Shown: piece after piece, positions 3,061 through 39,110 of the stretch
How the letters are laid out: every line of letters starts with the position of its first letter
Position numbering within the stretch: the stretch's first letter is position 1
DNA from: Hydractinia symbiolongicarpus
Lineage: Eukaryota
Direction of reading: 5' to 3'
Length of the DNA: 64,000 nucleotides
NCBI RefSeq assembly: GCF_029227915.1
Contig: NC_079887.1
Span: 16,160,214 to 16,224,213, forward strand
The notes under the pieces: generated by a model
The model's database searches: none
The model's input: the letters and a program-made list of their open reading frames with translations, nothing else
What the model was told of the DNA's origin: nothing
Translations under genes and position numbers: made by a program

Positions 3061-4857
3061 TTTTTCATTTTAAAGGAAATTGTTACTTTTAAGAAAAACT
3101 GTTTATTTTTAGTTTTGAAAAACTGTTTTACGATATTTACGATAACAGATGTTGTTGATGATGTGATGTTGTGTTGAATAAAAGAAAGAGAAACAATAAT
3201 TTTACATTTATATATAAGTTTAATTGGTTTTTAATTAGTTCAACATCGTTACAAAATTCGTTTCAATAACTTCAAAGACTTTTACATCGTATCACAAATA
3301 ATATTTGGACAATCATATCAAATCGTTTCAATTCTTATAAAAACTGAAACGATCTTGGAGACGATCCCTTAAGCAATAAGGATTACAGGCTTCAGTGCTA
3401 TTGTTGTATTATACTAAAGATGTTCAGTCCTCAAAGCTGCCGGGTACACAGGCACTGTTATAAATTAAAAGTGAGAGGATTTACCTATTATTTTAACAAA
3501 AAAAAACATAAGAAATTAAAGTATATACTATTATATAACTTTTAAATCTTTAATTTTTCAGGAAATTCATAACTCTTCTTCTTCCTTACTTGGAAATAAA
3601 TCAAAAATGTTAATTTCTTTTACGTGCCTTAAAGACAAATGGTCTTTGGTTTGACACAAAGCGCACACATAAGTACTTTGCAAGCATTTGTAAGTTGGCT
3701 ATAAAAGTTCAGCACGTCAAACAGTCTTACCTTCTTTTACTGACTCACATTTTTATTTATATACTCAGCTATATTTTTATATTAGGAAGCTAGAATTGTG
3801 CCAGGACTGCAGGAGGACATTTATATAGGGCTTAAAATTAAATTTCTGAAAGCATAGGAATAAAGAAAAAGAAAGAAAATATAGCTAGTGTCTTGGCTAT
3901 ATCTAAGCTAGTATAATGTGTCCTTCTTGCTTCCAAACGCACTTTTAAGAATCATACCCAAAACAAAATATTTACCCGGGGATTGTAGCTCAGTTGCTGC
4001 ATTAATATTGTCAGGACATGCGATTCTTTCTTGTTTCGGTTTTTCATCTTCCATTTTAAATACTTTTTTTCTTAGCAGTCATTTTTTGACATTCAAAACA
4101 GATTGGTTGCGACGTAAACATAATTTTTTAAAAAAAATATTTACCACAAATTACAAATGGGTTCCTGTTGCACTCCTACATTATAAAAGTTAAATTATTC
4201 AAGTACAAGTGCAAAAAGCACTATGGTGGAGGCTTGAAATCTGTGTATGCACCGCCCCCTAATTAGCGCCTACTGCGCCAATACCTACGCCACATACATA
4301 CGCTTTTTCCTTTGCATCTACATCTTCTCTCGCCTTCCCATTTTCTTTCCTATATATTTTTTTATATTTTTGACAAGTGTTTACACCACACAAGTAGAAA
4401 TATCGGGATGGATTTGATCGTATTTTGCACGATTGAGGGCGTAAAAAAACTTTTTTTAAAACACATACTATTCTTTCCTTTCTTACGTCAGCTACAGTGT
4501 AGCAGTCAATGAATTTATAAAATAACGTGAATGCTGTAATAAACGACCAGCCTCCAGAAAAAGCCTGCCTCCAGTAAAAGACCACTTCTGAACTTGAAAT
4601 ATTGAAAAAAATAGTATATACGCCCAATCTCCAATAAACACCCGTCTCTAAATAAAGTTTATCATGACTATGGTCAAAAAAGGCGCTTATTATGAATTTC
4701 ATCAAGCAATTACAGAAAAATAATGACACGGATTAATCTTTAAGTTTTAAACTTTCAGATGATTAAAATTATAAAAATATGGACACTGACTTTAATTTGT
4801 TAGGCGAAGAGACGACAGCAGGTGAAGAACAATTAGACAAGTTACTCTTTTGTGTTT

Positions 4858-9651: not shown

Positions 9652-10905
9652 ATGGTTATGGAGGAATGGATTTCTAACGATCGCTCAACTAGGCGATTTT
9701 ACGTTATTTGTCTTACATTAGACGGTATTCCTTTATTTTCTCGGTCAAATGGCAATCTTCCAAATTTGCCATTTCCTGTCATGGGTTCTTTAAATGGTGT
9801 CCACATGTTTGCAAAAAATAATCTTACAGAATTGGGTTTTACAACAGCTGACAATGCCAGTATTACCTGGAAAGAATTTCATAAAATTAAAATTATAATC
9901 ATAAATTTTGACAGAAATGTTACAGAATATCATTTAAACTTAATGGTTGAGAATGTGTACAAATGCATGGTAATGACAATAGGTGAAAACGAATTCACAA
10001 AAATAAATAATGTTGAAAAGCTTAAAAAGAAAACAAAGCTGTCACTTCCACTTGTTATGAAATGTTTAAACCCAACGCAACTTTTGAGCAACGTTACTCA
10101 AACAACCGATATTGTCTTATGTTCTGAAATAGCTGTGATACAAAACACATTAAATGCTTATACTGAAGAATGTCAAAGTGAGTTTGGTTGTTTAATTTTG
10201 CATGGAAAAGTCATTGCTGGAACGGAAAAATTTTGGCAACTTCTTCCCATTGAAACATCACTAATGCTTCATCTAATGGAAACTATACCTTTACTTTCTG
10301 CATCAGACATTCCAATATATCTCCCAAATGGTAGCCCAACAGTTCCACATAGACTTATTGCCATCAATTTGCTCGAAAATATAAAAGTTATGATTGTATG
10401 TGGGCCTGAACCCTCACTACAAGATGTGCTACATAAATATGCGAAAAAATATTGGATGCCCTTGACACAAATACTTCAATCATGCTCTCGATTGTATCCT
10501 AGATGGTTTCCACCTGAGATAAAACTTGACATCAATTTGTTAGGATTTGTACTTGTAAATGTAACCGAAGGAAAATGTTTATCCTCTTTTCATCCACATG
10601 GTAATATGACAGGTGCTGATCAAGTTTATTTATCTGAGAAGGAGAAAAGAAAGTGCGCATTGGTTTCGTTTTATCGAACAGTTGTTGGTGATATTTTTGT
10701 AAGAATAGATGAAGAAATGAAATGCAAGAAGTTTCCTCATGAAGTTATAGAAACTTACAGCTGCACAGATCAATATAAATGTTATGCATTACAATCTTCA
10801 AACCATCAACTTTTTACTCTTTTTGGAAATGATGTTCCTTCATATAGTCTTGGGAATATCACAAAGCAGATTTTAAGACAATTAACTAAGGATAGAATTA
10901 TATGA
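9652..10905 (+). CDS. FUZ: Fuzzy planar cell polarity / CPLANE protein homologue; a single uninterrupted 417-aa ORF
   Basis: Colinear similarity to human FUZ over its full length: N-terminal GIPLFSRS (h: GVPLFCRS); [15 protein letters not shown] (h: [15 protein letters not shown]); NVEKLKKK (h: NVERLKKD); [17 protein letters not shown] (h: [17 protein letters not shown]). The length matches (417 vs 418 aa). Confidence 0.85.
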
Positions 10906-10909
10906 TACT

Positions 10910-11203
<294 letters not shown>

Positions 11204-11284
11204 CTTAGGGGATAATACAGGTAAAATACCATTATATGAGCCATATTGAGTCCACAAGTTTGGAACTAAAATGCAGGCCATTCC

Positions 11285-11890
11285 TTGAGACAAGTGCGAT
11301 TGCACGTGCACTCGCCCGCACACTCGTAAAAAAATTTACGAGTGCTTTTTATTGCACTCGTGAATTTTTTCTTTTTCTACAATATTAGCTATAGATTGAT
11401 GAAAAAAGCTTTTGTGATATTTAAACGATCTACAGCGATATTTTCGCTTTCTATGATGCTGTTTTATGATTTTTACATGATCTACAGCAATCTTTTTGCT
11501 GTCTATGATTCCGTTTACATGATTTTTAAACGACCTACATCAATCTCTTCGCTTTCTACGATTCAGTTTTCCTGATTTTTAAACAATCTACGTCGATATT
11601 TTTGCTTTCTACCATGTCGTTTTATGATCTTTAAACGATCCACATTGGTATTTTCACTTTCTAAAATCGTATAGAGATTAATTCAAATAAAATATTATAC
11701 AAATTGAAGCAATCATGGAGACCATTCCTTAGTATTCAAACATCATTTCTATACAGCTGTTATGTTATGGAAAACAAAAAATAGTTAGTGTGAAACACAC
11801 TTGCAAATATTTACATCGCACTTGTAAATTTTGCTTACGAGTGCGATTTTTTGCACACCATAGCACTCGTAATTTTTTTAGCGGGTGCCT
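11285..11890. mobile_element. MITE-like composite: imperfect inverted termini built from the palindromic motif ACTCGTAAAAAAATTTACGAGTGC, flanking an internal ~60-bp x5 minisatellite (11400-11660)
   Basis: 11290-11360 and 11800-11890 share the ACTCGTAA/CGAGTGC words in inverted orientation. The internal tandem unit is ...TTTAAACGATCTACAGCGATATTTTCGCTTTCTATGATGCTGTTTTATGATTTTTA... Confidence 0.4.
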
Positions 11891-14249
11891 TTTGTAGCTC
11901 TGGCATAGTTTTACTTAAGAAATGGCCTGAAAATGTAAAACAGGAAAAATTAAAAAAAACACAGAATAGGGGTAAATAGGGCGTAGCTCAGTTTGCCTCC
12001 TACAGTAATAGGGAAAGCTTTTTTGTCTCTAAATAAAAACATATGCCACTGCCATAATTAATAAAAACAGTTTACATCCATTTTTGGTTAAATTAAGTAA
12101 TACAATTTATAAATATTGTTTTTTTCTGTCTCTTAAATCAAATATTCTTCACAATTCTTAAACCCAGCAATAGTTAAACAAAAATTTCTGTGAGCTTTTA
12201 ATTTTTTTTGAAATTTCTGCCACTGATCCTGTATCCAAATATGCCTTAGCCATACAACCCTCAAAATGAGTCGATTTCAGTATAAAATTGTCAATCAGAA
12301 ATGTTTTAGCATTTGAAAGCTTTACAGAAAACTAGGAAGCAAGAAGTTTGTAAATTTTTGCAAAAATGTGTGTAAAATTAGATAAATGAATGGAATTTTA
12401 TTAAAAACTTTGCATTTTTTAATTGACGTATTGACTATTATTATATGTATAGGTACAAGGAAAAGAGTGAACAAGCGCTAAATTTACAAACAATGTAATT
12501 ATATGTAATTAATTTCAAATTCGGTGTGCAGCCTTAGCCCTCCAAACTGAGAATAGTTGCGCACTCGCTATGAAAGAATGCAGCAAATTCTAGTGGTACG
12601 AAATCAAGACTGTGCAGTATTTCCAGTTTTTACTAACCATTATTACACCTTTGTGAACTGTGTAAGTTTATTTGGAATTAGGTTCACCAACAAGGGAGAG
12701 TGGAGAGGCGGGTAAGAGACACCAATAAAGAGGGCAAGATGAGAGTACAATGCATGTCATATTTTTGAAGCTACAAATTTACAGATTCTAATAGATTATT
12801 CCAATTGAGTTGAACAACCTTATCAAATTTTTCTATTAGATTAAGATATAGTCAATCACGTCCACTTGCCTCCTCTAACCTGCTTAACGTTAAACGCAGT
12901 CTAGGCGTGCGAAGGCCCTAGCCTTTGCACGCCTAGGTGGCGTGCATTGAATTTGTTCTCATTCTGTTGATCCTCATTATCCCAGATACAATTTTTCCTG
13001 AAAGAACATTGACTTCATTTTTGCATTGGGTTTGTGTTTCTCCCGAGCCATATTTCATTACTTTCAGCAAAGTGATGACACTATCATCTACTAATAAATT
13101 ATCATCATTGATACTTGTATCTTGAGCAGTTTTTGTAACCTACCAAAACTTTTTCTGGGTTAAACGGAACATTAACACATTTCGCGAAACCTACTTTTAC
13201 ATTCTTTTTGTCATGCTGCTATAGTGGAATTGTCAGTAGTCTTAGCAAAGTTAGAAAAAACTCCTTTGGTATACTTTTCTTTTTTACGGCCCTCCCTCTT
13301 TTTCCATTTTTCAAAAATTTGCCTGCATGCCATATTGGGCGAGAAAATGCAACATCTAGTGGTTACGTCATGTGGGTAGAATTATATACATGGTAAAAAT
13401 TACTTCTAGTAAAAGATGAGAACTTAAATGGTCTCCAATCATCAGTCAATTTGTGATATAAATATATATACAGCAGAAAAGATCCCTTTAACCAATGCAC
13501 TGCACTGAGTTGACAAACTTAATATCAGCCCCATAGTTTTATTTAGTTCGGCTTATGGTTCAAAATGGTGTAGTGACCAAGTAAGGTTGTATTATCGTTC
13601 TCAAGAAAAACAAAAACATCAGGATTAACTCAGTTGAATTTGTTGATGTTTGATACTCGTCAAGGCTTGGCATCAATTTATATTCTTTCATTTTAAAAAG
13701 TGCCGAAGAAAATGCCGCAGTCTGCCGAAGCAATTGCCGAAGGTTTTCAGTGCTTTTGACCATTGTCTTTGGCATTTTTTCTGCCGAAGGACTGCCGCAG
13801 TGATTTTAAAAAATTGCGAAGTTACTTCGGCAATTTTTTGCCGAGGCAAATATATCTGAAATTCGAGGGCTGTACGTTTTATTATAGTTTTAGTTTTAAT
13901 TATATTGAATGTTGATATTATAATTTTGTTTATTCCATTTATTCTTTGTAATAATACTTTCAAGCGATATAGTTTGTTTTGAAAGCACATGTACAGTGTT
14001 CATGACCATTTTCGAAATATTTTAAAATTATTTATATCTTGCCTCCCCCCCCACCCCCCTCCAAAAAAAATTTGCCAATAACACATAAGGGATATTTTGA
14101 AACAACTTTCTTTAGCATTTATTGTTTATTACACACTCCTCTTGTATTAGTCCCATTTAAGTATGAACTTTTTCTGATTTTAAATTTATGTAACTGGTTA
14201 TGTTAAATATAATGTATATCCTACTTTCCATTGCTTTTTATTTTCCAGT

Positions 14250-14713
14250 ATGTTTCTAACTACGTTGAATTCCAAAAGAAACGGAGAAATTATAAAAAGA
14301 TTATACCAACTCCATTTGGTGAGTTGCTGTGACGGTTTATTTCAACTTCTCGATAAAATTGATTTCAACCTGAACGATATTAAAGAGAGAAGAAATTTGA
14401 ACATGGCTTTATTTGCACCGACTGTAAAATACTGTGAAAACATTTTGAAGCAGGTATTTGAATGTACATTGACATCAACATCGACAACTGCAGAGACACT
14501 GTCTGATGAAACAGAAGCATGTCCTATAAACATCACCGAAAAAGCTACAGAATTTTGTGAGCAGTACAAGCTTGATTGCAGTTCAAGTAAAGTTTTTGTA
14601 AATAATATTGACTTTAAAGTAAAGCAAAGAGAGCTATGGGACTTTTTTGAGTACTTTGGTAAAGTGTTGAGGTGTAGTATCATTAAAGACAGGAAGACCA
14701 AAAGATCAAGAGG
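14250..14713 (+). CDS. RRM-protein coding exon (first identifiable coding exon; ATG at 14250 directly preceded by a polypyrimidine-AG, so it could also be an internal exon). Contains RNP-2 (KVFVNNI); ends in phase 2.
   Basis: The ORF ...SSSKVFVNNIDFKVKQRELWDFFEYFGKVLRCSIIKDRKTKRSRG, then donor GTATCC at 14714. RNP-1 (RGFAFVIF) is completed across the splice into 14796. Confidence 0.5.
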
Positions 14714-14795
14714 GTATCCATATTTGTATTTCCATGTATAAAGTTGCAATTGATCAACTCTAAATATTTACCTGATAATTTTTTTTTCTATTCAG

Positions 14796-14879
14796 GTTTG
14801 CATTTGTTATTTTTTCGAGTCCACAGGATGCTAACTCTGCAATAAATGCTAAAAATTATGAATTACGCTTAAACGGGAG
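14796..14879 (+). CDS. RRM exon 2 ((G)FAFVIFSSPQDANSAINAKNYELRLNG-), RNP-1 octamer
   Basis: Acceptor ttcag| at 14795, donor GTATGT at 14880. The frame continues from the previous exon to give RGFAFVIF. Confidence 0.55.
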
Positions 14880-15047
14880 GTATGTAAAATTGACAGCAAC
14901 TTTCAAGCTATTGTTGATGATTCCTGCTTTATTCCACGTTTTTATTTTCTAAACAGGTTAACATAAATCCCTATGAAATAGATTTTCAGGGTATTTTCCA
15001 ATAATGTAATGATTTCATTTTCGCTACAACTTTACATGTTTGTAATA

Positions 15048-15088
15048 GGGTGATGGTTGTCAAACCAGCTACTCGACAGAAAAAATCA
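15048..15088 (+). CDS. RRM exon 3 ((R)VMVVKPATRQKKS-)
   Basis: Acceptor gtaatag|, donor GTATAT. Phase-consistent with its neighbours and completes the RRM beta-4. Confidence 0.4.
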
Positions 15089-15174
15089 AGTATATACCTT
15101 TTCATGTTTCAATCAGCAATTTCTTTTCTAATATCAAAGCTACTTATGCATTTAGTGTCTTATTAACATTTTAG

Positions 15175-15224
15175 CTAAGTCAGAAGAAAATACATCACTT
15201 TCTAAAGCTGAGCAAAAAATGAAG
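15175..15224 (+). CDS. Linker exon (-KSEENTSLSKAEQKMK), ending in phase 0
   Basis: Acceptor ttttag| at 15174, donor GTAGGA at 15225. Phase-compatible with the F-box exon at 16294. Confidence 0.3.
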
Positions 15225-16293
15225 GTAGGATTGTAAAATTATGAGCATTTTATAATACAAGTATAACCCAAAAAACTTCACTGATAACTTAAACTTCCAG
15301 GAACTGAAACAAACAGCTTTTTAAATTTCCTTCAACAGAACTTTTTTATACAAAAAATTTAAGTCAAACTCTTAATAACTGGAACATTTATTAAAAGTTG
15401 AATTTTTTCCCTGTCCCCTGTGCCTATACCTCTGATAACTAAAGCTAAGGCATTTTTCAACCTTGTCATCACCAAAATTATAAAAACTAGATAAAAAACG
15501 CCTTCCCAGCACCAAGATTATTTCTGTTTGAACTATATTCAATTGTTTGCCAAAGTTCAAGTTATCAAGAAACATGAGGGGAATACTGTATATCAATATC
15601 ATTGACACAAATCTCTGACTTTGTTTTTTGGAAGGTTTACCCTGTTCAATTTACATGGTTTTTTGTAATTTGACCAACACAGATTTTTTTCATATTTCAT
15701 TTTATTCAGTACTAACACAGTTATCTTAAGAAAAAATCTCATTTATATAATATCAATTTATTTTAGGATGCTGCACAGTATTTTTTAAATAATGACTTGG
15801 GCGAACAGAAATGTCAGTTGTATGTTTAATTTTTTATATGACTACTTCTATGTAAGAAAGAACTTTAGAAAGTTTTTAGAAAATGTATTTATTAAAGTCT
15901 CCCTACTTAACAAAACTTACATAAATTCTGTTCATTTGACTTTGAGAAACCTCATTTGTCTTACTAACATTGTAGATTTATCATTAAGGGTTTCCCTACT
16001 TCCTTCTCTAAAAAGATATTAGGTTTATTGTAGAATAATGTTGTGGATTTTAAATTAAATTTGTCAATCGGCCAAATTTTGTAATTTTTCTTATTACTAG
16101 TGTAAGACTTGTCAGAAATTAACTTGATTGCACAGCAATAGTTATGCGCTATTAAAGGCCCAACATGAAATTTTTTTTGATATTAAAGCAAACATGAACA
16201 AAGCAATTTTCTGGAATTTTGTTTGCCTTGACACTGCTCTCTTGAGTAAAGTATTTTGAATTTAGAAGATTATCTGTCTTGTTTTTTAACCAG

Positions 16294-16391
16294 GGAAAAA
16301 GAAATATGTCCATTTAAAGTTCTTTGTGATGACATGATTCTGGAGATATTTTCCTATCTAGATCTTATTACAAGAATAAAAATCGAATTAG
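16294..16391 (+). CDS. F-box exon (GKEICPFKVLCDDMILEIFSYLDLITRIKIEL-)
   Basis: Canonical F-box N-terminal half (L..LPDEILLKIFSYLD pattern). Acceptor aaccag|, donor GTATGT. Confidence 0.65.
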
Positions 16392-17216
16392 GTATGTTTT
16401 TATTTGTCTTCAGCATTTATTCTACATGTTAATATTCTTGTACTAAATAAGTTGTGGAGTGTATAATTCAATGAGTAGTTTATATGTGAAACTTATCTCT
16501 GTATTACAGCCAACATTAGTGCTGACGGTTTAAACATTTTGTTTTTATTGCATGCAGCTAACTGCAAAGAAGACGTATTTGTTTATACTTTTTGGATGAT
16601 ACATTACTAGCCACGTAACTGTACAACGACGAGGGGTTAGAGTATTTAATCTTCCTAATTTCATAAAGATCAAATATGTATATCTACCTACTGTCGAAGC
16701 AAACTTATATTTTTGAAAATAGACAAACTTGAATTAACTGAAACTGAAACCTACTTTCCTTATTTCTACATACCTACCACAGTCACAATTGACACCCACT
16801 TGCAATTTTAGTATAAAAAGCTACTTTTTTAAGGCGTCAACCTGCTCTACATAGCTAACAGTCAATTTTAACGGCCAAAATTACGTTTATTTGATGCAAT
16901 TGTTTTTGTAAAGGCATTTAAAGAAAAAAAAATAATTTATTACTAACAACTTAAACATTTGCAGTCCAATGTTGATAACACTTGATTTGTTTATTGCAAT
17001 GAAAATTGGTCAAGATAGCCAATGATGCAGGACTTGTTTTTTGGCTGTTATACAAAGATTCTTTATGAGAAGACCACCTGTCCAAGATGGACGTCTTAAG
17101 TAAATTTGAATATATGCTAATAATGCATGTAAAAATTGCAAAAAGCAGCAGAAAATTCATTTTTCTAGTTGCACATGAGAGAAAATACACTTCCATTTTT
17201 TTCATTTTTTTTTCAG

Positions 17217-17312
17217 TATGTAAAAAATGGCAGAACCTTGCTATTGAGTCTTGGGGAAATGTTCACCATGTTGACTTTCATGGTATATTTCAAATATCTC
17301 ACAAATATGCAG
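17217..17312 (+). CDS. F-box second half (-VCKKWQNLAIESWGNVHHVDFHGIFQISHKYA-)
   Basis: The C(R/K)(R/K)W...W motif of the F-box. Acceptor tttcag|, donor GTAATG. Confidence 0.65.
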
Positions 17313-17578
17313 GTAATGTGGTTTTTTTCTTCCTTAGAATTTATTTTTAAGTTTCATTCTAATATGCATTCTGCAAGATTTGCATTCAGTTTAAGCTACT
17401 TATTGTTAGTATTTGCAAAAAAATGGCAAACGGGTTAAACTTTTTTTAACTAACAAGCAAGTCTATTGTTTTAGGGGTTTTTTAATGTTTCGTGTGGGTT
17501 TAGCTTGTATATACAATGCAATTTTATTGTTTTATTTTATTGGTGAATGTAATAAGTGGCCTGAATTTTATTTTTTAG

Positions 17579-17692
17579 GTTTAACTGATCGAGTTTTGAT
17601 ATCATTATTAAAGAAAGGTTGTCAAAACCTCATATCACTCGATCTTTCTGCCTCTCCATATCTTCTCAGTCATTACAGCTTGATATATATTG
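17579..17692 (+). CDS. LRR exon (-GLTDRVLISLLKKGCQNLISLDLSASPYLLSHYSLIYI-)
   Basis: FBXL-type leucine-rich repeat (L..L..GC..L..L.L). Acceptor ttttag|, donor GTATGT. Confidence 0.6.
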
Positions 17693-17944
17693 GTATGTGC
17701 AAAAAACCCCATTTGTTGTTTTAACGAAAAACTACTTTATTTCTGGATTGTGGTAATGTTTTTAAATCACATTCTAAGTCTGATTTGGGTCACATTTTTC
17801 ACATTTTTTTTGTATTACTTACTTGTGGTAACGCATTTTAAAGGATTGAGAATTATTCGCTAGGAATTTAGCAAATACTATTCATAATATTCCCTTATAG
17901 TACTTTCAAATATTATATTGTTATTGAAGATATTGTTACGGTTT

Positions 17945-18365
17945 GTCTGTTCAGTATTCATATTACTCTGGAAAGTTTATCATTTCTTGAACATGATAGT
18001 TTAGTAGGCAACGTTTCGGGAGATCCTTCTCCCATCATCGGGCAAAGTAAAATGATGTTGAGCATGTATTTATATAATTGCAGAGGATCGAAATTCATAA
18101 AAATTAGCCAATCAGAAACGAGCTGATAATTACAGTTAATTACGGTTAATTTCGGACCTAGATGTAGGTAACTACTTCTTCTGTAGGTATCAACTTCCTA
18201 AGATTTGGTTACCAGCCCTAAGATTTGGTTACCAGCCCCTGCTCAACATCATTTTACTTTTCCCGATGATGGGAGAAGGATCTCCCGAAACGTCGCCTAC
18301 TAAACTATCATGTTCAAGAAATGATAAACTTTCCACAGTAATATTATATTGTTGATAGGAAATGG
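17945..18365. mobile_element. Foldback MITE with ~120-bp terminal inverted repeats and a short internal tandem duplication (CCTAAGATTTGGTTACCAGCCC x2), inside an F-box/LRR gene intron
   Basis: 17950-18070 is the near-perfect reverse complement of 18240-18360. Confidence 0.7.
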
Positions 18366-18574
18366 TAATGTATTTTAGATCCACAAAATCAATACTGCTT
18401 AACCAATATATCTTTTTTCACATCTAATGTAAGATAAACGTAAATTACCAATCTAAGTCTGTTACTTTTGTTTTTACGGCTTTTGCTTGTTTCTAAGAAT
18501 TTTTGTTTGTTTCAATTGAATTTATAGAAACAGTTAACTGATGAATATATAGTATATTTTGTTTCAATTTGCAG

Positions 18575-18672
18575 GAAATATATGTGAAAAGTTGGAGAGC
18601 ATAAACTTATCTTTTACTTCTGTGCAGAACAAAACATTGAAACATCTTGGCTCAAAACTTTTGCAGCTTAAA
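18575..18672 (+). CDS. LRR exon (-GNICEKLESINLSFTSVQNKTLKHLGSKLLQLK)
   Basis: LRR consensus. Acceptor ttgcag|, donor GTATGT. Confidence 0.55.
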
Positions 18673-18994
18673 GTATGTTTTTTTTTCTACCAGTTTTCTT
18701 TCGCGACATGTTTTGTTGACGATGTATGTTGTAGCCACTAGTGTTGTACTTACTTTTTGAGTTTTTTTAATTTTTTATTGTTACGTTTAGAAAATTAATC
18801 TTGCTAGGTGCTTGCATGTTGGTGAAAAAGGGTAACTTAAGTTTCTTAATCTTTCTGATTTTCCATGGACACTTCACTCAAAAAGACACTAATGCATCAT
18901 TTCCTACCTTTTGTTGTTATTAAATTGCAAGCTTTTTCCTCTCTTTTGAATTTTTTTTACAAATTAAATTGATTGATTTGAATACAATATTTAG

Positions 18995-19070
18995 TCTGTG
19001 GTGGTTGTTTAAAGATTTAAAACACTTGGAATATTTGAAACTTACAGAAACAACAAGACTTTCGGGAAAA
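18995..19070 (+). CDS. LRR exon (...LWWLFKDLKHLEYLKLTETTRLSGK); 5' boundary and phase unresolved
   Basis: Open LRR-like frame ending at donor GTAAGT at 19071. The obvious acceptor at 18994 gives the wrong phase, so the true acceptor, or an extra micro-exon, is unresolved. Confidence 0.35.
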
Positions 19071-19499
19071 GTAAGTGATCGAATAAAAAATGTTTACTTT
19101 GCTATGTTTTCAGTTGTGTTTAGCAGTCTACTTAATATATTTATCAGAATCAATACTTGTTACACATGGGGGATTCGTATTTTTACTCTATTTAAATTGA
19201 AGCGCAAAAGACCTTTAATTGCAATTCTCGAGATTACTGGAATTGAATGGATTATATCATGAAAATGTGAAGGTAGGGTGCAACCCTGGAACGTAATTAA
19301 TAAAAAAGCAGAATAATAATAATATCTCGTTTTCTTCCAACACCTGGTCTTGGTATTTTGGATATTCAGCTAGAAAATTTGTTTACGTGACCAGGCAATT
19401 TGATATTTATGGAGAGAGAGGGTAATAGAATGTTTTCATTTTAATTTTTTATATTATGTCTACGGTTATTAAAAAGTTGTTATTTGTTTTTGCTATTTA

Positions 19500-19556
19500 G
19501 TGCTTGTACATGCTTCCACCTACATTAAAAACCGTTGATTTCAATACGTGTTCAAA
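19500..19556 (+). CDS. LRR exon (CLYMLPPTLKTVDFNTCSK)
   Basis: Acceptor atttag|, donor GTAAGA; phase 0. Confidence 0.5.
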
Positions 19557-20064
19557 GGTAAGAGTGAGTACATTTGGTTGTGTCTGCATAACAAATGCAG
19601 CTTTTTATTTAAGACCAACCTGTGATATTGTACATTTTTTTTTCTGATTGTAAACATCCTTTCGGTTTTAAAAAATTACTCAGAATAATGTTCTTGTAAG
19701 TGATCAAATTTGACATTGTTTGATGATATAAAATTTTTTGGTCGTTGCAGACCAAAATACGTTGCGATATTGCTGTGTTGTCGTTAGGGACCATCTCAAA
19801 TTTGAAAGTGAAAGCAAGTCCGAAATTCAGTACCTTATGCAAAAAAAAAAAAAAATAAATAATAAAAAAAATTGAACAACTTCTCTATTTTTTATTTATT
19901 TGTATATTTATAGGTTTGTGATTAATTGAATAAAGTTCAAAGGAAAATAAAATGTGAAATTACATTTTATTTTCCTTCTAACTTTATTTTTTCAAATATA
20001 GTTTACATATTTTTGTGGGACTCACTGTAGAGTAGAAGCAGAGAGAGGTATATGAGTAGAATTT

Positions 20065-20175
20065 TTTGTTTAGCTCTCAGATCTGGGATTGAAAAATCTG
20101 GCAATGCGATGTCCAAACTTGACCAATATTAATATTTCGTTATGTTTGTCGATCACCAATGCTGGTGTAAATGCA
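20065..20175 (+). CDS. LRR exon (LSDLGLKNLAMRCPNLTNINISLCLSITNAGVNALLE)
   Basis: Typical FBXL LRR (L..L...CP.L..L.LS.C..ITD.G). Acceptor gtttag|, donor GTAAGT. Confidence 0.6.
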
Positions 20176-20257
20176 CTATTAGAAGTAAGTGAAACAAAAC
20201 TTTTGAAGAAGATGGAGAAACGTTTTGACTGATTGTAACATGCTCGTTAGGAGATGC

Positions 20258-22272
20258 CTTAATTACCGACTTTCATACAGTGCAGTCTGGGCACGAATAA
20301 AGCGCTTGTAGGGACAAATTTTTAGCTTGTTTTTGTTTGACTCGATAGCCCAGTCAAGTTTTTTGGTCACTTTCTCACAAAGAATTATTTGTGTCATACG
20401 AAGAAAGGTCGTGAAATGTGTAACCTTTTCTTGTTTCTCTTCTAATTCTTAACATTTGGTGCTGCTAGTCCTCTCTTTGGTATATTATCTATATTAAAAC
20501 AAGAACAACTTACAGTTATTAACTTTTACAAAGTTTAAAAGATGGACGATGGTAAAAGTGTATTTTTAGCTCTGTGCCTGCAGGCAGAGGCAATGAGCAT
20601 GGACTGAAGTATCTATAAGAAAATACATGACGCACTGCTAGATATTACACATTTTTTCCTTATAATCAACCTTCATGGTATGAATTAAATATAGCTAGCT
20701 AGATGGCTGAAGACAACCATATGTTCAATGTAATGTATGTTTGGCTATGGCTGCAACAAGGACAACCAAAACGAATTAGAGCTAGCTAGCTTATTGTTGC
20801 AAAAGTAGAAGAAATGGATAATCAAATATCAAGCTAAAAGAATCAAGATATGAATAATTATCAAAGAATATTTTTAAATTTGGACGAAAGGCTATTAAAA
20901 ATGCCACAACTGCATATGTAGCTTATATATACTGTCCTTATTACGTGATTATCTAGAAGCGAATATTTAACCCCGCCAACTCCATAACTTTATGGTTTAG
21001 CATCTCTAAAAAAAACTTAATTAATTAAAAAAAATTAAATTTTTTTTTAATTCAACTTTTTCTGGCTAATTTTTTTTTTTGAGGAAAAGATTTTCAGGAT
21101 GAAGGTAATCTTCAAATGATAGATTTTTGCAGAAAGAAGTTTTCATGAGTTTTTTAGTTTTTTTTTTCTTTAGTTTACAAGTTCACAACAAATTTTAGGA
21201 GTCAGTCATGTGTTTGCATGTGTTTACAACTTATTCACTGAAATAAATTCTTGTCAATAAGTTTAAAGAGAACATTTTCTTACTTGCATGTAATTTTGCT
21301 ATGATATCTTTCCAACCTTTTCCTATCCTTGTCAGAAAATTTGACCCACCATTTCCCTTTTAGTACTAGATTCCTAACCAGTTATATATATGCAATATTA
21401 AATTTTAGCTAATCTGGCAATTTTGGAGTTTTTTGCAAGAATTAATTTGTTTGTATCAAGTGTTTATTATTAACTAAAAGATTATATATATCAAATGTTG
21501 ATGAAGACTTTTGCAAAAACAGTTTGCTGAGGCTGAAGATTTAGTAATTTTAGTGAAAGAAAAATCAGTATTGTTAAATAACGAAAACTTTATTGTGGAT
21601 AAAAAATGAGACACTTTGTGTTAAAAATTTGTGGATGTTGGATTTTAACTTTTTTTTGTAAATTTAAGGTTAACGTAGATGTAACTAACAGCTAACATAA
21701 TGATAATAATAGAAAAGTATTCACAGTGATGTTTTCCTTGCCCCTGTGCACTGGCCAGGCTAACTAAAGCTAAATGGCTTAAACTACACCTTTCATCACA
21801 CCTTTCGTCAGCTATTTACCTAGCTAGTTAACTAACTAACTGCACTTGCTTTGTTTTGAAATATAGTGGTAGTAACTATTGGGGACAATACTTTTTAAAC
21901 AATAAAAATTAGCAATGTGGTGCCAACAATAACATTTCTTTCTGGTAACACGTTGGACACTTAACTTTTAGCTGGGCTAACCTTCAGACGGAATCAGCAA
22001 TCTTTAGTCATTTAATAACCTTGAATTTTGTGTCTTTTGGATAGAATACAGTCCATAAACCATTAAAGAATACCCTTCTTTAATTTTACTGTTATAATAG
22101 TAAAGCAGGGAGGTATAAAAGTTCTTTTATACCTCCATGGGTAAGCCTTAAGTTAAATTTTCTGTTAATTTTGTTGTTGTTTTCTTCTTGTTGCGCTACC
22201 ATTATGAAAAATTTGTCCCTACAAGCTTTTACTCGTGCCCAGACTGCGCTGTATGAAAGTCGGTAATGATGC
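20258..22272. mobile_element. ~2-kb non-autonomous TIR DNA transposon in an F-box/LRR gene intron; ~55-bp TIRs (TTACCGACTTTCATACAGTGCAGTCTGGGCACGAATAAAGCGCTTGTAGGGACAAATTTTT)
   Basis: 20258-20320 is the reverse complement of 22205-22272. The interior has no ORF and contains low-complexity A/T tracts. Confidence 0.6.
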
Positions 22273-23442
22273 GAATTTATTATGTATTTGTACACATTTG
22301 TAACTTTTTAAATTTCTAGTTCATTTTTGCGAATTAGTTCAGATCTCCTTTAAAGGTTTTCGCTTGTTATTCAAAAGCAGCTTAGTCCTGTACCAACCTC
22401 GTTCCCAGGGCAAATTTCCTCTGTTTTGTTATCAAAGACGACGCGAAGAAATGGCCCTGCTGTGGGAACGAGGTTGAGTCTCGTGCATGGAGAAGTATTT
22501 GTTGCTAATTTATTACAAATATTACGAAACAAAATGTTATTTTATTTTAGACTTGTACAAACGTTTTTAACTTAAGCATGAAAGGTTTGAGCCCAACACG
22601 TAAGTGATATATCATTTCTTCCAAGCATTTATTTGTCTACATGGAAATTTGAGTCAATTTCTATACTGTAAATGCTTTAAATCGTGATATTATGATACTT
22701 TTTCAGGAAAAAGGAAGATGTTTAACTAAAGGGAAAGAAGGGTTTTATTTAGTGGGAAACAAGGTTTTAGGGGGTGTTTGATTGGTTGTTCAAGTTTTAC
22801 CTCGTGCTTTTTTTAAGCTTTTTGGGGCCTTTAACTTCTTGCTAATTTTAAAATTTCTTGAGAACAGATATTAACAGACAGTTTTTCCTTGTTTAGTTGT
22901 GACGTCACGTGGTCTTCTGTCTCTTCGCAAGTTAAACAAGTTGGTAAGGATACAAATATTTTTTATTATGTAATCCTTAAAATTAATAATTAATTTTGAC
23001 TAGGTCTAGCTTTAATGTATATAAATTAGGGCCATGTCGATGAGAATCTTGCCTCTTCTTAGTTCTGTGTGCCTTACCAGAATGTCATTAAGCATGCCTT
23101 TTTATTCCCTTGATTTTTGTCACCTCTTTATGATGTTTACACGTACACGCTCATAGTTTTTTTACACAAACATAATTTATTCCGCAAAACAGGTTGAGGT
23201 ACTCGTTTTGTAGCTTTCTTCCCAAAGTATTTTCTTTTGTGGTGGAAGAAATAGATAACTGGGTACTTTTTATTTTTCTTATGTCATTTGATACATTTTC
23301 AACAATTGAACTGTCTGACAACTTAGGGAATTGATTTTCGCAAGAATTAATTTTGGAAATTCCTGCGTAAATTAATTGCCTTAAAGTGCACATTTAGAAA
23401 CATTTGTAATGTTTCTTATTCCTTTCTTTCTTTACTTTTTAG

Positions 23443-23522
23443 ATATCTCTCGACATCAGTCAAAATAGTTCAGTTGATGATGACGTCATTAAGACTGTGA
23501 GCAGGTCCTGCTCCAAATTAAA
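23443..23522 (+). CDS. LRR exon (ISLDISQNSSVDDDVIKTVSRSCSKL-)
   Basis: Acceptor ctttttag|, donor GTAAGG. Confidence 0.55.
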
Positions 23523-23909
23523 GTAAGGAAAAGTTTAGGGACACCCTGACACAGGATTTGATCGTTCCAACTGCTTCTGAACTAATTTGCAAGCTTGATC
23601 GCAGTTCATGATAAACATTGGACAACCAAAAAAGTGTATTACATACTTGTCATTGACATCTTGCATGTCTTCTTTTATAAAACACACTTTTACAGTTCAG
23701 TAAAAAATGCGTTTTGATTCGGATGAGGGATCATTTAAGCATTACATCATACAGAATGATGTTGGTGGGTTAGGGCGAAATTTTTATTTGGATGACGTTA
23801 CTTAGCATTCTGATTGGGTGGGGTTGAAATGCTTCTTTGTGTTATTTTAAATGATCCAGTATGTTTGACCATGTAGTCATGTCATAGTTCACTAACGCAG
23901 GATTTTTTT

Positions 23910-24015
23910 TAATTTGAAGGTGTTTAAACATAGAAGCATGTCATGGGGATATAACCTGCGAGGGAATCAAATCTCTTTGTTTACTGGACGAATTGACTGA
24001 CTTGAATATCAGTTA
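23910..24015 (+). CDS. LRR exon (-CLNIEACHGDITCEGIKSLCLLDELTDLNISYIVK)
   Basis: Acceptor ttgaag|, donor GTAATC; phase-consistent. Confidence 0.55.
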
Positions 24016-24279
24016 CATAGTCAAGGTAATCTCCCCTCTTTAGTATTTTTTTAGCACTCTTCAAACAACAAACTCCCTTTTTATGTGTGCTGTGTTCCTT
24101 AAGTGGATGAAAAATGCATCCAAATGGAAACCATTTGACTGCAGTTTTCGCTACAAGCGCAAAAATTCAGTATGTAGCAGAATTAGAGATTTTACTTTAC
24201 AGAATTAATGTTTGCAAACCTTCTTTGTTTCCGCAAGTTTAATTTCTATTTTTTAAACAAGTACGACATACATAAGTGA

Positions 24280-24625
24280 CTAAATTTTGGCTAAGTGACT
24301 AATATTTTTTGCCGACTAAAATTTTTGCCGACTTTTTTGTTATAGACCAAATTTTTTTGCCGACATTTTTATTTCCGACCTAACATTCCGACTTTTTTCC
24401 GACCACCTTTTTGCCGTTTTTTCTTCCTTGTTGCTAATTTTTATCAGTTTAATGCAATTCTTTTTTAGTGACTAAATTCATAAAATTAGTCGGCAAAAAG
24501 TGACTAAAGTCAAAAATTTTGTTGGCAAAAAGTGACTAAATTTTGTCCAAGTGACTAATATTTTTGCCGACTTTTTATTTTTGCCGACTAATTTTTTTGC
24601 CGACTTTTTTTTATCGATAAGTTAC
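24280..24625. repeat. Intronic low-complexity palindromic repeat cluster (TTTTTGCCGAC / GTCGGCAAAAA and AAGTGACTAA units)
   Basis: Multiple direct and inverted copies of the two motifs. Confidence 0.6.
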
Positions 24626-24999
24626 GCAAAGTTTTTTTTTCGCATTTTACCTTATTTTTGATTTGTCCGTAAATTCCCTCTAAATTCAGGACAGCTAGAT
24701 TTTTGTAGATTTCACTTTAGACAATAAATAGCTTTTTGAAGTTACTTAAAAATGTGCTCGTTCACAATTTTTTATTTCGCATTTTGCATATCTAATCAGA
24801 GTTCCCAATCGTGAAATTGAATTTCGCAATTTTCTCGCAAGCAATCTCCTAATGTATTTATTAGCTTGACTAGTCGTAAATATACGGGAATTCGCCAGTT
24901 GTACATGTTTTCCGCATTTCGTGCATCGTTGTGTGACTGTTAACAGTAATGTAATTATTCTGCACAGATGGATTAAAAGTGTCCTGTGATATGTTTTAG

Positions 25000-25087
25000 G
25001 TTTGCACTGAGTGTTTATCCGAGTTGGCGTTGCAAGGAAAACTAGAAAAGTTGTTGGTTAAATCTTGCCCAGGAATTTCTAATGAAG
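25000..25087 (+). CDS. LRR exon (VCTECLSELALQGKLEKLLVKSCPGISNE-)
   Basis: Acceptor gttttag|, donor GTTAGT. Confidence 0.55.
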
Positions 25088-25603
25088 GTTAGTAATTAAA
25101 TGGTCCGCGAAACAGCCTGTTGACGTTTGTCTTCAGTGGCTTACATAAAATTAATTGTAATGGTGAAAATGTTTATGAGCACTGTAATATGTTGTATTTC
25201 ATTACTTTTCCGTGAAACGTATTTAGTTTTCTTCCAAAAAATGTAAATTAATCCTCCCCACCCCATTTTTCTATCTTTCATCTTTTTTATTGCGAAACAC
25301 ATTTCTTTTCCTTATATGATCCCAACCTCGTTTTCAGCGGCATAGGTAGTTCCAAAAGTTTTTTTTTTCAAAAACAGGAAGTGCAAATACTCTTGACGCT
25401 TAATCTCATACGCGAAACTTTTGCTTTGTACGCCAAGTTTTTAATGTCATTGGTCTGATTGTTTGCTGCATTTAACTCAGTATAGAATCCCTAAAATTCA
25501 CTAATTTTGTACATCTTGCTTTTTGTCAGTGATTTCCCGTCTAACAAAAAAAAATTCGCGAAAATTTTACGCAACGAGTTACTTTAATTTCTCTCTATTG
25601 TAG

Positions 25604-25747
25604 GAGTTGTTACCTGTCTTATTTATTTGGATTCGCTTCACACGTTCGATCTAAGTGGATGTTACACGGTTGATGATGGTTTCATCGACGATAATCGACT
25701 AAAAAATGTGCTGCGTCAGCATATGACATTGGATTTAATACTAGGAG
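25604..25747 (+). CDS. LRR exon (-VVTCLIYLDSLHTFDLSGCYTVDDGFIDDNRLKNVLRQHMTLDLILG-)
   Basis: Acceptor attgtag|, donor GTGAAA. Confidence 0.55.
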
Positions 25748-26129
25748 GTGAAAATTTCTCCTTCTATATTACATTTTTGAATCCGCTTTTTTTTTACAGT
25801 GCCTACTAAATTTTATTTATACAATCCCCCACTGTACACAGTGCCTGGAGTTAATTTCCGGTACCCTGGTCTGACCATAGACACGCTCACAAACATTTTT
25901 AAATGGAAAACATTATTTTTCTGTCCGAATTTTCCCCTTGGCCAGTTAAAGGTGCCCCCAACTGAAGTATATGTAGATGATGCACGTAGTGTAATGGGTT
26001 TGTCTGTGACTTCCAGTTCTTGGGATCGCTTCCGCTCACTGCCAGGCAATATGTTGTGATGCATCAGGGGGCTTTACTTCTATATTAAAAATTATGGTTC
26101 CTTACGCGAATGTATGTTATTTAATTCAG

Positions 26130-26249
26130 CTAGCGAAGTGACAGAAGAAGGGTTGACGAAACTAAAAGAATTTTTTACTTGGTGTAATCCTACTTTACAG
26201 AATCTTCGTGTAAACATGCTCAGAAATGACCGTGATCCAATGTATATAG
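26130..26249 (+). CDS. Exon (-ASEVTEEGLTKLKEFFTWCNPTLQNLRVNMLRNDRDPMYI-)
   Basis: Acceptor aattcag|, donor GTGAGT. Confidence 0.55.
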
Positions 26250-26643
26250 GTGAGTGTATATGTTTTCGATCTGTCAGAAGGGAGGTTTAAACTTTGTGAT
26301 GACCATATGGAAATCAGTTTCTATGATAGCTTTATTTAACAAAGCGACAATTGAGGGGATTCGCCTGATGTTGTAAAGTGAAGCTTTGTATTGTCTATGT
26401 ACAAGCTCGTGACTTTGATAATGAAATACGAAAATGAAATCTTTATTAGTTGTTACAAGAGGCCAGCGGCCATTTATTAGTCTTTTAATTCTGAAATGAT
26501 TTTAAGGAAGATTGGGTAACACCTGCAATTGTCAGTACGCTTTGCGTCTCTTGTAATTGGATGGGGTTGTTTTGAATGGCAGTTTCTCTATAGAGGTAAT
26601 AAATCAAAGTAAAAAAACCTATCCCAGTCTTTTTATTATTTAG

Positions 26644-27071
26644 AATATTCAGACGAGGACGATGATTTCGACGAAGAAGACAGAGAAGCCGGAGAAGAAA
26701 AGGAAGAAACACAACTACAACATAATCTTCGCCCATGTGAATCTGAGTTAGAATTTGATGTGAATGCTGACTATTCGATGGTTGAAGAAGACGGGGAAAG
26801 CCTTTATGTTGTGGAGAAGTGTTCGCCTTTAAAACAAGATAAGGACTTTCTAGTCAACGACAGGGAAGGTTACCTTGTGGAGCATTTACAAACGGCATTT
26901 TCAAATTTGGAAGAAAATTTTCCAAATACGGAAGAAAATTGGGATGATGAAACTGACGGCAGCCGAGTATGGGAAGTGGCTGCAGAAAGTTTACATTATT
27001 CAGACGAGATCGATGTTGACGATGATTACTTAGAAAATGATGACGTGAGCAGAAATGAATTAATTGGTTAA
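26644..27071 (+). CDS. Terminal exon: highly acidic (D/E-rich) ~142-aa tail ...EYSDEDDDFDEEDREAGEEKEE...DEIDVDDDYLENDDVSRNELIG*, stop at 27069-27071; AATAAA at ~27218
   Basis: Acceptor tatttag| at 26643. The long open frame ends with TAA. A polyadenylation hexamer lies ~150 bp downstream. Confidence 0.6.
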
Positions 27072-32819: not shown

Positions 32820-33325
32820 GGTGAAAAATCATTTTTCCTTCAACCAGGAGAGAAATTAGAAAAAGGTATTCAAAAAATATACGTCCTTGGCGAAGACGAG
32901 GGATTGATTTTAAAAGCTACCGAAGAATTCACAGACGACAAAGACAAACGCGCTCCTGGAGATCGCTGGATGATCCGTGGTCCACGAGAATACGTGCCGC
33001 CCGTAGAAGTAGAAGTAAGCAACTTTCGCAAAGCAATTCCACTGGATGCCAACGAAGGTGTTTATGTTCGAAATATAAAAACAGGTCAGGTGAGAGCTGT
33101 TATCGGATGCACATACATGTTGAATCAAGATGAGGAACTGTGGCAAAAAGAGTTGCCACCTGTCGTGGAAGATTTGTTGGCACAAGGAAAAGATCCCGTT
33201 GCTGACCGCAGTGATCGAAAAACTGCTGAAAAACCTAAATCACGCGATAAACATAAAGTAGTCACCTTCCGCGTGCCACACAATGCTACTGTTCAAATCT
33301 ACGACTACAAGGATAAAAAAGCAAG
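32820..33325 (+). CDS. MVP: MVP exon 6 ([23 protein letters not shown]...[20 protein letters not shown]...[37 protein letters not shown]...[21 protein letters not shown]-)
   Basis: Long colinear match to human [23 protein letters not shown]...[21 protein letters not shown]...[37 protein letters not shown]...[21 protein letters not shown]. Donor GTATGC at 33326. Confidence 0.9.
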
Positions 33326-33407
33326 GTATGCACAAATTGTTACCCGTCCAAATTTGTTATTTTGTGTTTGTTTATATACTAACGTTACAATTTTTTTTTC
33401 TTTCTAG

Positions 33408-33605
33408 AGTCATTTTTGGTCCGGATCTTGTCATGCTTGGCCCAGATGAGCAGTTCACTGTTCTCAGTATCTCTGGCGGCAAGCCTAAACGTCCTAATGT
33501 AATCAAAGCATTATGTTTATTACTTGGTCCTGACTTTTGCACTGATATAGTTGTCGTAGAAACTGCTGATCATGCGAGACTGTCATTACAGTTGTCTTAT
33601 AACTG
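33408..33605 (+). CDS. MVP: MVP exon 7 ((R)[65 protein letters not shown]-)
   Basis: Matches human [67 protein letters not shown]. Confidence 0.9.
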
Positions 33606-33697
33606 GTAAGAGGTCTAACTCTTCGTTGAAATCTGTATGTAATAAGAATAAAGGGGTGAGAAAAAATAATCTTAATTATTGTGTTTTTATGCCATAG

Positions 33698-34048
33698 GCA
33701 CTTCACATGTGACAAGGACGACGCCAGTGGCGCGAAACTTTTCTCAGTACCAGACTTCATCGGAGATGCTTGCAAGGCGATCGCTTCGCGAATTCGAGGT
33801 GCTGTGGCCAGCGTAAAGTTTGACGATTTCCACAAGAATTCCGCAAAAATCATCCGCTCTTCCGTATTTGGGTTGGACGAGAAGGGAAAAGTTCGAGAAA
33901 AATTCACCTTTCCAGCAAATAATTTGAGCATAACTAGTGTCGATATCCAGTCTGTGGAGCCCGTCGATCAACGTACACGTGACGCTCTGCAGAAATCTGT
34001 CCAGCTTGCTATTGAAATCACAACAGCTTCGCAAGAAGCGTCTGCGAA
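33698..34048 (+). CDS. MVP: MVP exon 8 ((W)[58 protein letters not shown]...[36 protein letters not shown]-)
   Basis: Matches human [60 protein letters not shown]...[37 protein letters not shown]. Confidence 0.9.
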
Positions 34049-34187
34049 GTAAGTGGTTTTCTTATTGAATATACTGCAGTGTTTGTGATCTCGACTTCAG
34101 GCATGCGCGCTAACAGCGTATGACATTTTTGGGATTTTTAGGTGTAATTGACAGCTAGGCATGTATTTTCTTGAATTTGTTATTTAG

Positions 34188-34431
34188 ACATGAGGCAGAT
34201 CGTCTTGAACAAGAAGCTCGAGGTCGCCTCGAGAGACAGAAAATTCAGGATGAAGCAGAAGCAGAGAAGGCTCGCCGAGAGTTACTCCAACTGCAAGCTT
34301 TGAGCGCAGCTGTCGAATCAACTGGTCAAGCTAAGGCCGAGGCTCAGTCTCGTGCTGAAGCTGCACGAATTGAAGGCGAGGCTGCCGTACAACAAGCGCA
34401 ATTGAAATCTGAAGCGACCAGCATTGAAGCT
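34188..34431 (+). CDS. MVP: MVP exon 9 ((K)[81 protein letters not shown])
   Basis: Matches human [83 protein letters not shown]. Confidence 0.9.
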
Positions 34432-34589
34432 GTGAGTCATCAATTCCGTTCTGTCTTTGTTATTAATAATTTCACCCGCAAGTTGAATTGTTGTGTGGAT
34501 CACACATCAACCCGGTCATAACCTATTTCCACAAATATTTTCTCTCCGTGACCTCTGTTCTTACTTTTACTCTTAATGATTTTTCCTAG

Positions 34590-38626: not shown

Positions 38627-39110
38627 CCTAAAAATATATGCAATTGTTCGGACTAACACGCCAGAGACATAATTCCGGTGACGTATACACTAATTGACGG
38701 TACAAAACACGCAGCAGGAGACCGATTAAGACATTATTTGATAGTATACCGTGCGCGACTAAAAATTAAATCTCACATCATTCATAAAGTAAGGAAAAAA
38801 GGTACTGACTATGGGAATGACTAAATGACCACTGTATAAATTTTACTATCAATAGGCAATACTATGAATAGGTAAATACGAAATATGTAACTGAATAGAT
38901 TTTCTTACAACGGCCCACATCAATATTTAACTCTCCTTACGACAACAGATACCTGTATATATACAGTCAAGACAGTACTTTCGACCGTAGTTACATAATT
39001 ACAAAAATGAATGCTATGCTTTGCACTGCTACGAAGTTAATCAGGAAATAAGGTACCGAGTACTTTAGGTAAATATAAACATGCAAATGAAAATCCACAC
39101 TAAAACCTAC

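Follow-up and report, generated by a model that had tools for sequence, protein, structure and literature searches.

The 64,000-nt window analysed here, i.e., the whole stretch of Hydractinia symbiolongicarpus contig NC_079887.1 from position 16,160,214 to 16,224,213 on the forward strand, is AT-rich eukaryotic DNA with roughly 30-35% G+C, and all gene coordinates below are positions in this window. Exons encoding an RNA recognition motif (RRM), an F-box, leucine-rich repeats (LRR) and an acidic tail all lie on the + strand within 14250-27071. Spliced reconstruction joins them, as 21 exons with GT-AG introns throughout, into an uninterrupted open reading frame (ORF) of 814 amino acids (aa). 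We consider it highly probable that this span is one gene, whose 814-aa product is an orthologue of the animal EEED8.10 family and is proposed to act as a receptor of the SCF (Skp1-Cul1-Rbx1) ubiquitin ligase with an RNA-binding RRM. The 814-aa, 21-exon model, which includes a 53-nt exon between the RRM and F-box exons and is predicted from genomic sequence, is the corrected full-length gene model. In the predicted protein, a short conserved N-terminal helix is followed by the RRM (aa 115-184), a flexible linker of about 55 aa, the F-box (aa about 241-273), the LRR domain (aa about 296-672) and the tail; under the predicted splice pattern, the RRM thus lies N-terminal to the F-box within a single spliced ORF.

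Exon 1 (14250-14713, 464 nt) begins with the ATG at 14250, and its N-terminus, which carries the conserved helix motif, aligns with the Met1 region of the orthologues. It further encodes RNP-2 (KVFVNNI, aa 114-120) and RNP-1 as far as RSRG, and ends within the codon for Gly155. RNP-1 (RGFAFVIF, aa 154-161) is split inside this codon by the intron at 14714-14795, and its remainder (FAFVIF) opens exon 2 (14796-14879, 84 nt), which continues to ...LRLNGR of the RRM. Exon 3 (15049-15089, 41 nt) supplies the final RRM strand, VMVVKPA, and a basic stretch, and exon 4 (15175-15224, 50 nt) encodes the linker segment TKSEENTSLSKAEQKMK up to the donor at 15224. The initial annotation of this locus, which was made from the sequence alone, had described a complete RRM encoded by four exons, with RNP-1 split across an intron and a final phase-0 donor. 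The RRM is indeed complete (Pfam RRM_1, aa 115-184, expectation value (E) 4.5e-18), and both the split motif and the donor phase are as described, but the RRM proper is confined to exons 1-3, exon 4 being linker.

The same annotation took the donor at 15224 and the acceptor at 16294 to be phase-compatible, which does not hold. The AG acceptor at 16294 does open an F-box exon (...LCDDMILEIFSYLD; Pfam F-box, aa 241-272, E 3.5e-7), but this exon needs phase-2 entry, i.e., two bases carried in from upstream (xx/G GAA AAA GAA ATA TGT, the slash marking the splice site), and then reads xEKEICPF (…EKEICPFKVLCDDMILEIFSYLD); the earlier reading, GKEICPF, had dropped one base. A direct splice from 15224 to 16294 was considered and rejected: it is out of frame and, read as GGA AAA AGA AAT ATG TCC ATT TAA, yields GKRNMSI and a stop after seven codons. 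Exon 5 (15767-15819, 53 nt), which is entered in phase 0 and left in phase 2, makes the RRM and F-box frames compatible, and the full 814-aa ORF opens only with this exon included. It encodes the linker segment DAAQYFLNNDLGEQKCQ(L), and its boundaries (ttttag/GATGCT...CAGTT/gtatgt) present a strong acceptor, atcaatttattttag, and the donor gtatgt. Its AAxxF motif is kept in hydrozoan and Actinia orthologues, with continuous alignment across the linker. The first half of the F-box, EKEICPFKVLCDDMILEIFSYLDLITRIKIEL, is encoded by exon 6 (16294-16391, 98 nt, phase-2 acceptor), and the second half, VCKKWQNLAIESW, by exon 7 (17217-17312, 96 nt), which also contains the beginning of the LRR domain. 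The in-frame Met of MILEIFSYLD, previously placed at about 16333, exists as Met245 and lies at 16334-16336.

Exons 8-20, within 17579-26249, are all GT-AG, in frame and aligned to the orthologues without gaps, and encode an FBXL-type LRR solenoid (aa about 296-672). They comprise exons 8-12 (17579-17692, 18575-18672, 18791-18831, 18995-19070 and 19501-19557), exons 13-16 (20074-20184, 22551-22599, 22897-22943 and 23443-23522) and exons 17-20 (23920-24025, 25000-25087, 25604-25747 and 26130-26249). LRR exons were thus correctly predicted to follow the F-box exon, but fifteen exons, rather than about ten, follow the first F-box exon. Exon 21 (26644-27071, 428 nt) encodes a 142-aa acidic tail with a D-Y-L-x-N-D-D motif near its end and closes with a TAA stop at 27069-27071; an AATAAA at 27219, 148 nt past the stop, is a plausible poly(A) signal. 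D and E make up 35% of the tail and 11% of the remaining protein, in agreement with the D/E-rich tail of about 140 aa noted earlier. Exon 21 contains an internal direct repeat (26639-26674 and 26990-27025, 78% identity), which encodes (E/H)YSDE-D-acidic stretches at the tail start and near its end, and the tail may have grown by internal duplication.

With respect to domain matches, the F-box scores 30.3 bits in Pfam against a cut-off of 20.5, and a Pfam scan of the 814-aa protein returned no LRR family at E 0.1 or better. The LRR segment at aa 348-528 matches chain 6o60_C of human FBXL2 with E 5e-19, and FBXL17 with E 1.4e-13. All three canonical aromatic RNP residues are present in KVFVNNI and RGFAFVIF, and the closest solved RRMs are those of PABP, hnRNP A1, hnRNP A2/B1, SF3B4 and Sxl, all of which are RNA-binding. 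The hydrophobic core of the F-box (L241, I249, F250, L253, V264 and W268) is present in the window protein and conserved in the family. Structure was predicted with AlphaFold2 for a 45%-identical orthologue, P0001, from an alignment of orthologues only, and the following values describe that protein. The model has a confident RRM, F-box and LRR solenoid of about 13 strand-helix repeats (predicted local distance difference test, pLDDT, above 90), whereas the linker (168-214) and the tail (638-786) are of low confidence and the tail is predicted to be disordered; no confident contact is found between the RRM and other parts. Its top match among solved folds is FBXL2-SKP1 (E 1.2e-19, TM-score 0.74 normalised to FBXL2), followed by FBXL17, TIR1, COI1 and Skp2.

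The initial annotation had left two options, a single RRM-F-box-LRR polypeptide or two adjacent genes, and had proposed a search for RRM and F-box orthologues in related genomes. Such a search finds many collinear full-length relatives. The best match to the 814-aa product is P0001 (E 6e-202, 45% identity, 98% coverage), and the matches P0001-P0011 range from E 6e-202 to 5e-50 with coverage of 58-98%. Other collinear full-length relatives are P0002, P0004 and proteins from Actinia, Diadema, Haliotis, Lingula, Anneissia, Antedon and Aplysia, and precomputed RRM and F-box matches are found on nearly all full-length relatives. RRM, F-box, LRR and tail all lie inside an intronless 786-aa ORF on a 74-kb contig in the case of P0001, and inside an uninterrupted 841-aa ORF on a 3.3-kb contig in the case of P0002. 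Argopecten and Rhipicephalus members of 646-740 aa are encoded on transcript-like contigs of 2.1-2.8 kb. An exhaustive search with a profile that begins at the RRM and extends over the N-terminal half of the LRRs retrieved 1442 cluster representatives at E<=1e-30, and 86 fetched proteins match from the RRM through the LRRs in one stretch.

The gene structure was compared with the Actinia tenebrosa RefSeq gene LOC116296873, rebuilt on its genomic locus, over the first six exons. These measure 482/84/38/32/74/92 nt in Actinia and 464/84/41/50/53/98 nt in the window, with the same intron positions and identical entry phases (0,2,2,1,0,2, then 1). The codon and phase at which exon 1 ends are shared by both genes, exon 2 has the same 84 nt and phase, and exon 4 ends in phase 0 in both. 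The Actinia counterpart of the 53-nt exon has 74 nt and equal entry and exit phases, and the F-box exon is likewise entered and left in equal phases. In both genes an intron splits RNP-1 within the Gly codon, a phase-0 intron precedes the linker exon, and a phase-2 intron separates that exon from the F-box exon.

Exons 1-12 are covered by L003, a genomic contig belonging to a close Hydractinia relative, with intron nucleotide identity of about 75-99%. Length, AG/GT sites and frame are kept for all twelve exons, the 53-nt exon included, and the spliced translation is open throughout; exon 1 is 98.7% identical and exon 2 is 100% identical. The single polypeptide is well supported by the uninterrupted ORFs of relatives, the Actinia phases, the frame and splice sites of L003 and the 86 collinear proteins.

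The initial annotation regarded the architecture as unusual. However, an RRM at the N-terminus, then a linker, an F-box, FBXL-type LRRs and an acidic tail with D-F/Y-L-x-x-D-D, is the order found across a family spread widely among animals. Databases already list most of its named members under the C. elegans gene, as 'putative RNA-binding protein EEED8.10', and sometimes as 'F-box/LRR-repeat protein 2-like'. Named EEED8.10 orthologues include those of Actinia, Diadema, Lingula, Saccoglossus, Argopecten, Priapulus and Rhipicephalus, among others, and the window protein shares 31-48% identity with the family over 62-98% of its length. As judged from these comparisons, the locus is an ordinary member of an animal family that is widespread and already has a name, but for whose function no study was found, and its architecture is not new.

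The family occurs in cnidarians, echinoderms, a hemichordate, molluscs, annelids, a nemertean, a brachiopod, a priapulid, nematodes and arthropods. Members were seen in sea anemone, sea urchin, crinoids, acorn worm, gastropods and bivalves and, among arthropods, in scorpion, tick, mite, leafhopper and crickets. No vertebrate member was found among about 30 named matches, which do not amount to an exhaustive search. Hydrozoan members differ from the rest of the family in a longer tail, and they end in ...DDYLENDDVSRNELIG, whereas Actinia and bilaterian members end in DFLxxDDPxxxExWDxS. Only the D-Y-L-x-N-D-D core of that C-terminal motif is found in the window tail; the tails of the orthologues are also acidic.

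Residue conservation was counted over 87 family proteins. RNP-2 position 2 is F/Y in 78 of them and RNP-1 position 5 in 76, and the F-box residues I249, F250, L253, E262, V264, C265 and W268 are kept in 71-86. In the literature, one paper calls C. elegans EEED8.10, which sits in an operon directly ahead of pink-1, an F-box gene (PMC5423972), and another lists it among splicing- and nonsense-mediated decay-related genes bound by PHA-4 (PMC5563511). The searched literature mentions EEED8.10 in passing alone and contains nothing on its function, searches for RRM and F-box combinations included.

RefSeq protein XP_057294604.1 ('uncharacterized protein LOC130623129', H. symbiolongicarpus, 236 aa; P0024) is reproduced exactly from the window. 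It is built from an alternative first coding exon at 17087-17099 (+), which encodes MDVL and starts the product after the first half of the F-box, from exons 7-13, from an extra 57-nt cassette exon at 19751-19807 (+; TKIRCDIAVLSLGTISNLK) seen in this RefSeq product only, and from read-through of the donor at 20184 (20185-20232). The 57-nt exon has no counterpart in the orthologues, there is no insertion at that point in the family alignment, and its donor in L003 is CT, not GT. Given that XP_057294604.1 starts in the middle of the F-box, ends in an intron and contains a non-conserved extra exon, it appears to be a fragment. Public annotation at the locus seems limited to this 236-aa fragment. 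A homology query joining N- and C-terminal parts returned no other Hydractinia RefSeq models, although its lossy word index also missed P0024 and P0029, both of which are in the database.

Several observations weigh against the reading of the locus as one gene for an RNA-binding SCF receptor. The only protein on record from the locus is this 236-aa product, with its other first exon, extra exon and retained intron after 20184. In an exact look-up in the protein collection, neither the 814-aa model nor any of seven variants was present; among the variants were versions with and without the 57-nt exon, versions beginning at MDVL or at Met245, and two read-throughs that contain the RRM only. The 53-nt exon is 92.5% identical in L003 and its flanking introns 88-90%, i.e., the exon is barely more conserved than they are. 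RNP-1 position 3 is aromatic in just 47 of the 87 members. Where an F-box canonically has Pro, the window protein has a Cys, and just 25 of the 87 members have the Pro; at F-box position 2 the window protein has Cys, against Pro or Asn in the family. Finally, the searched literature holds no test of Skp1 binding, RNA binding or ubiquitylation for family members.

The alternative that survives best accepts a single gene but supposes that its main product, or a major one, is without the RRM: an ordinary FBXL-type receptor would arise from an alternative promoter or first exon, and the RRM form would be minor. RefSeq does annotate RRM-less isoforms with an intact F-box and LRR domain in Argopecten (X3, 578 aa), Priapulus (X3, 578 aa) and Hydra (X5, 627 aa), and the Hydractinia fragment likewise starts downstream of the RRM. 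On the other hand, the longer isoforms of Argopecten and Priapulus have the RRM, and the RRM sequence is conserved across phyla and so is under selection within the protein. Hydra X5 has its first residues within the final RRM strand (its MEVVNG aligns with VMVVKP) and looks like a truncation, and the Hydractinia fragment is a poor guide, given its start within the F-box and its end in a retained intron; neither of the two is recorded as the longest product of its gene. We consider this alternative somewhat unlikely. The two-gene alternative of the initial annotation possibly applies in this weaker form, i.e., as two kinds of product from one gene rather than as two genes.

Returning to the single gene with an RRM-bearing product, its domain composition suggests that the protein most likely serves SCF as a substrate receptor, with RNA tethering or regulating it. 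The steps that follow are drawn from established knowledge of F-box proteins and RRMs. The F-box would dock on Skp1, making the protein the substrate receptor of an SCF ubiquitin ligase, and the concave LRR face would bind the protein substrate through a degron. The RRM, held on its flexible linker, would bind single-stranded RNA, and this binding could either bring the ligase to proteins on particular RNAs, i.e., in ribonucleoproteins, or make substrate capture RNA-dependent. In RRM-less isoforms, of the kind annotated for other species, the ligase would no longer be coupled to RNA.

The SCF substrate receptors FBXL2/FBXL20 and FBXL17 of humans (6o60, 6w66 and 8uah) share with the window protein an F-box that leads straight into a curved solenoid of about 13 Cys-containing LRRs. 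Unlike it, they have neither an RRM nor a long acidic tail, and identity to them is only about 20%. FBXL2 moreover has a C-terminal CaaX prenylation motif, whereas the window protein ends in ...RNELIG, which is not CaaX. The logic of placing an RNA-binding module and a ubiquitin-ligase module in one polypeptide is shared with CNOT4 (RING and RRM), Roquin and MEX3. Those proteins are single-chain RING E3 ligases, whereas here the RNA-binding module would sit on an exchangeable receptor of a multi-subunit cullin ligase, and we know of no homology between them and the window protein outside the RRM.

A second alternative retains the receptor but supposes that the RRM does not bind RNA and instead mediates protein-protein contacts, as UHM-type RRMs do, or regulates the LRRs or the acidic tail within the molecule. 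In many bilaterian members RNP-1 position 3 is Ile, Ser or Met, and it is conceivable that a long acidic tail mimics nucleic acid and occupies the RRM. The window protein has, however, all three canonical aromatic RNP positions, two of which are F/Y in about 88% of family members. The RNA-binding nature of the closest solved RRMs and the lack of confident contact between the RRM and other parts in the orthologue model likewise speak against it, and we regard this explanation as unlikely.

The two-gene alternative of the initial annotation, in which exon 4 or 5 is the last exon of a small RRM protein and Met245 (16334), or a nearby position, begins a distinct F-box/LRR protein on the same strand, is by far the weakest and can be given hardly any credence in view of the uninterrupted RRM, F-box and LRR ORFs of relatives, the identical exon phases across the junction in Actinia and the 86 collinear proteins. 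In its favour, read-through of the donor at 15224 or at 15819 meets a stop within 3-4 codons, which makes short RRM-only products formally possible, ATTAAA hexamers are present in introns 4 and 5, and the RefSeq record for the Hydractinia genome does not show a fused model. These hexamers, one in intron 4 and four in intron 5, carry little information, given that the DNA is so AT-rich that AATAAA/ATTAAA occur at 2.8 per kb across the window. A start at Met245 is unlikely because it would remove two conserved residues from the front of the F-box, L241 (kept in 78 of 87) and D244 (66 of 87). From its acceptor onwards the F-box exon is open, and Met245 is its first Met; the RRM-less isoforms annotated in three other species start upstream of the equivalent of Met245.

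For the family as a whole, we tentatively propose, as a possibility that falls short of being probable, that EEED8.10 proteins are an ancient animal SCF receptor coupling RNA binding to ubiquitylation. In this proposal, the RRM would direct or gate the ligase on ribonucleoproteins and RRM-less isoforms would switch the RNA dependence off; the family is present from cnidarians to nematodes, arthropods and hemichordates and may be missing from vertebrates. What is predicted is a cullin-ligase substrate receptor with its own canonical RRM, conserved across most animal phyla and with a C. elegans member open to genetics. Should the RRM indeed guide the ligase to substrates bound to RNA, the family would be a cullin-based counterpart of the RING-type RNA-binding E3 ligases. 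An RNA-linked ligase would be a property of the family, not one specific to the Hydractinia locus, and the family may deserve experimental attention.

Some further features were observed in the relatives and in the introns of the gene. The gene for P0001 (L002 10001-12361, +) has no introns, and an Exo_endo_phos ORF, i.e., an endonuclease of the long interspersed nuclear element type, lies about 5 kb away (4014-4823, -); P0001 may have arisen by retrocopying of a spliced RRM-F-box-LRR mRNA, or its lineage may have an intronless gene. Introns 2 and 3 of the window gene (14880-15174) are 96% and 99% identical to L003, compared with 72-92% for the other introns, and may hold splicing-regulatory sequence around the 41-nt exon 3. 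Intron 8 contains a 385-bp element at 17960-18344 with 105-nt terminal inverted repeats that are 97% complementary; the segment 17923-18339 has no counterpart in L003, and the element looks like a recent insertion of the miniature inverted-repeat transposable element type. The longest intron of the gene, intron 13, carries at 20262-22267 a pair of 40-nt inverted repeats (95% complementary) about 1.9 kb apart, which may be the remnant of a larger DNA transposon. Short T-rich repeat clusters around GCCGAC/GCCGAA ('TTTTTGCCGACT...') are present in intron 17 (24270-24610) and, as identified by eye, upstream of exon 1 (13690-13850), and probably belong to one dispersed repeat family.

The gene's upstream neighbour is an intronless 417-aa ORF at 9652-10905 (+) with three FUZ/MON1/HPS1 longin domains (E 6e-20, 2e-14 and 9e-12). 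Directly past it (10902-11323), a simple repeat covers at least about 330 nt, from roughly 10910 to 11245; it is a (TA)n-type microsatellite that translates as (IY)n in three listed frames, two on the - strand and one on the + strand. Downstream, major vault protein exons are found at 32904-34521 (+; Vault repeats and MVP shoulder, E 1.6e-36), and glycogen debranching enzyme exons at 38991-41996 and 55170-55949 (-; hDGE_amylase, E 2e-56, and GDE_C). Between the debranching-enzyme exons, a 187-aa ORF at 47691-48254 (-) has a weak match to DUF6570 (E 9e-5, just below the Pfam cut-off) and may be transposon-derived sequence in an intron.

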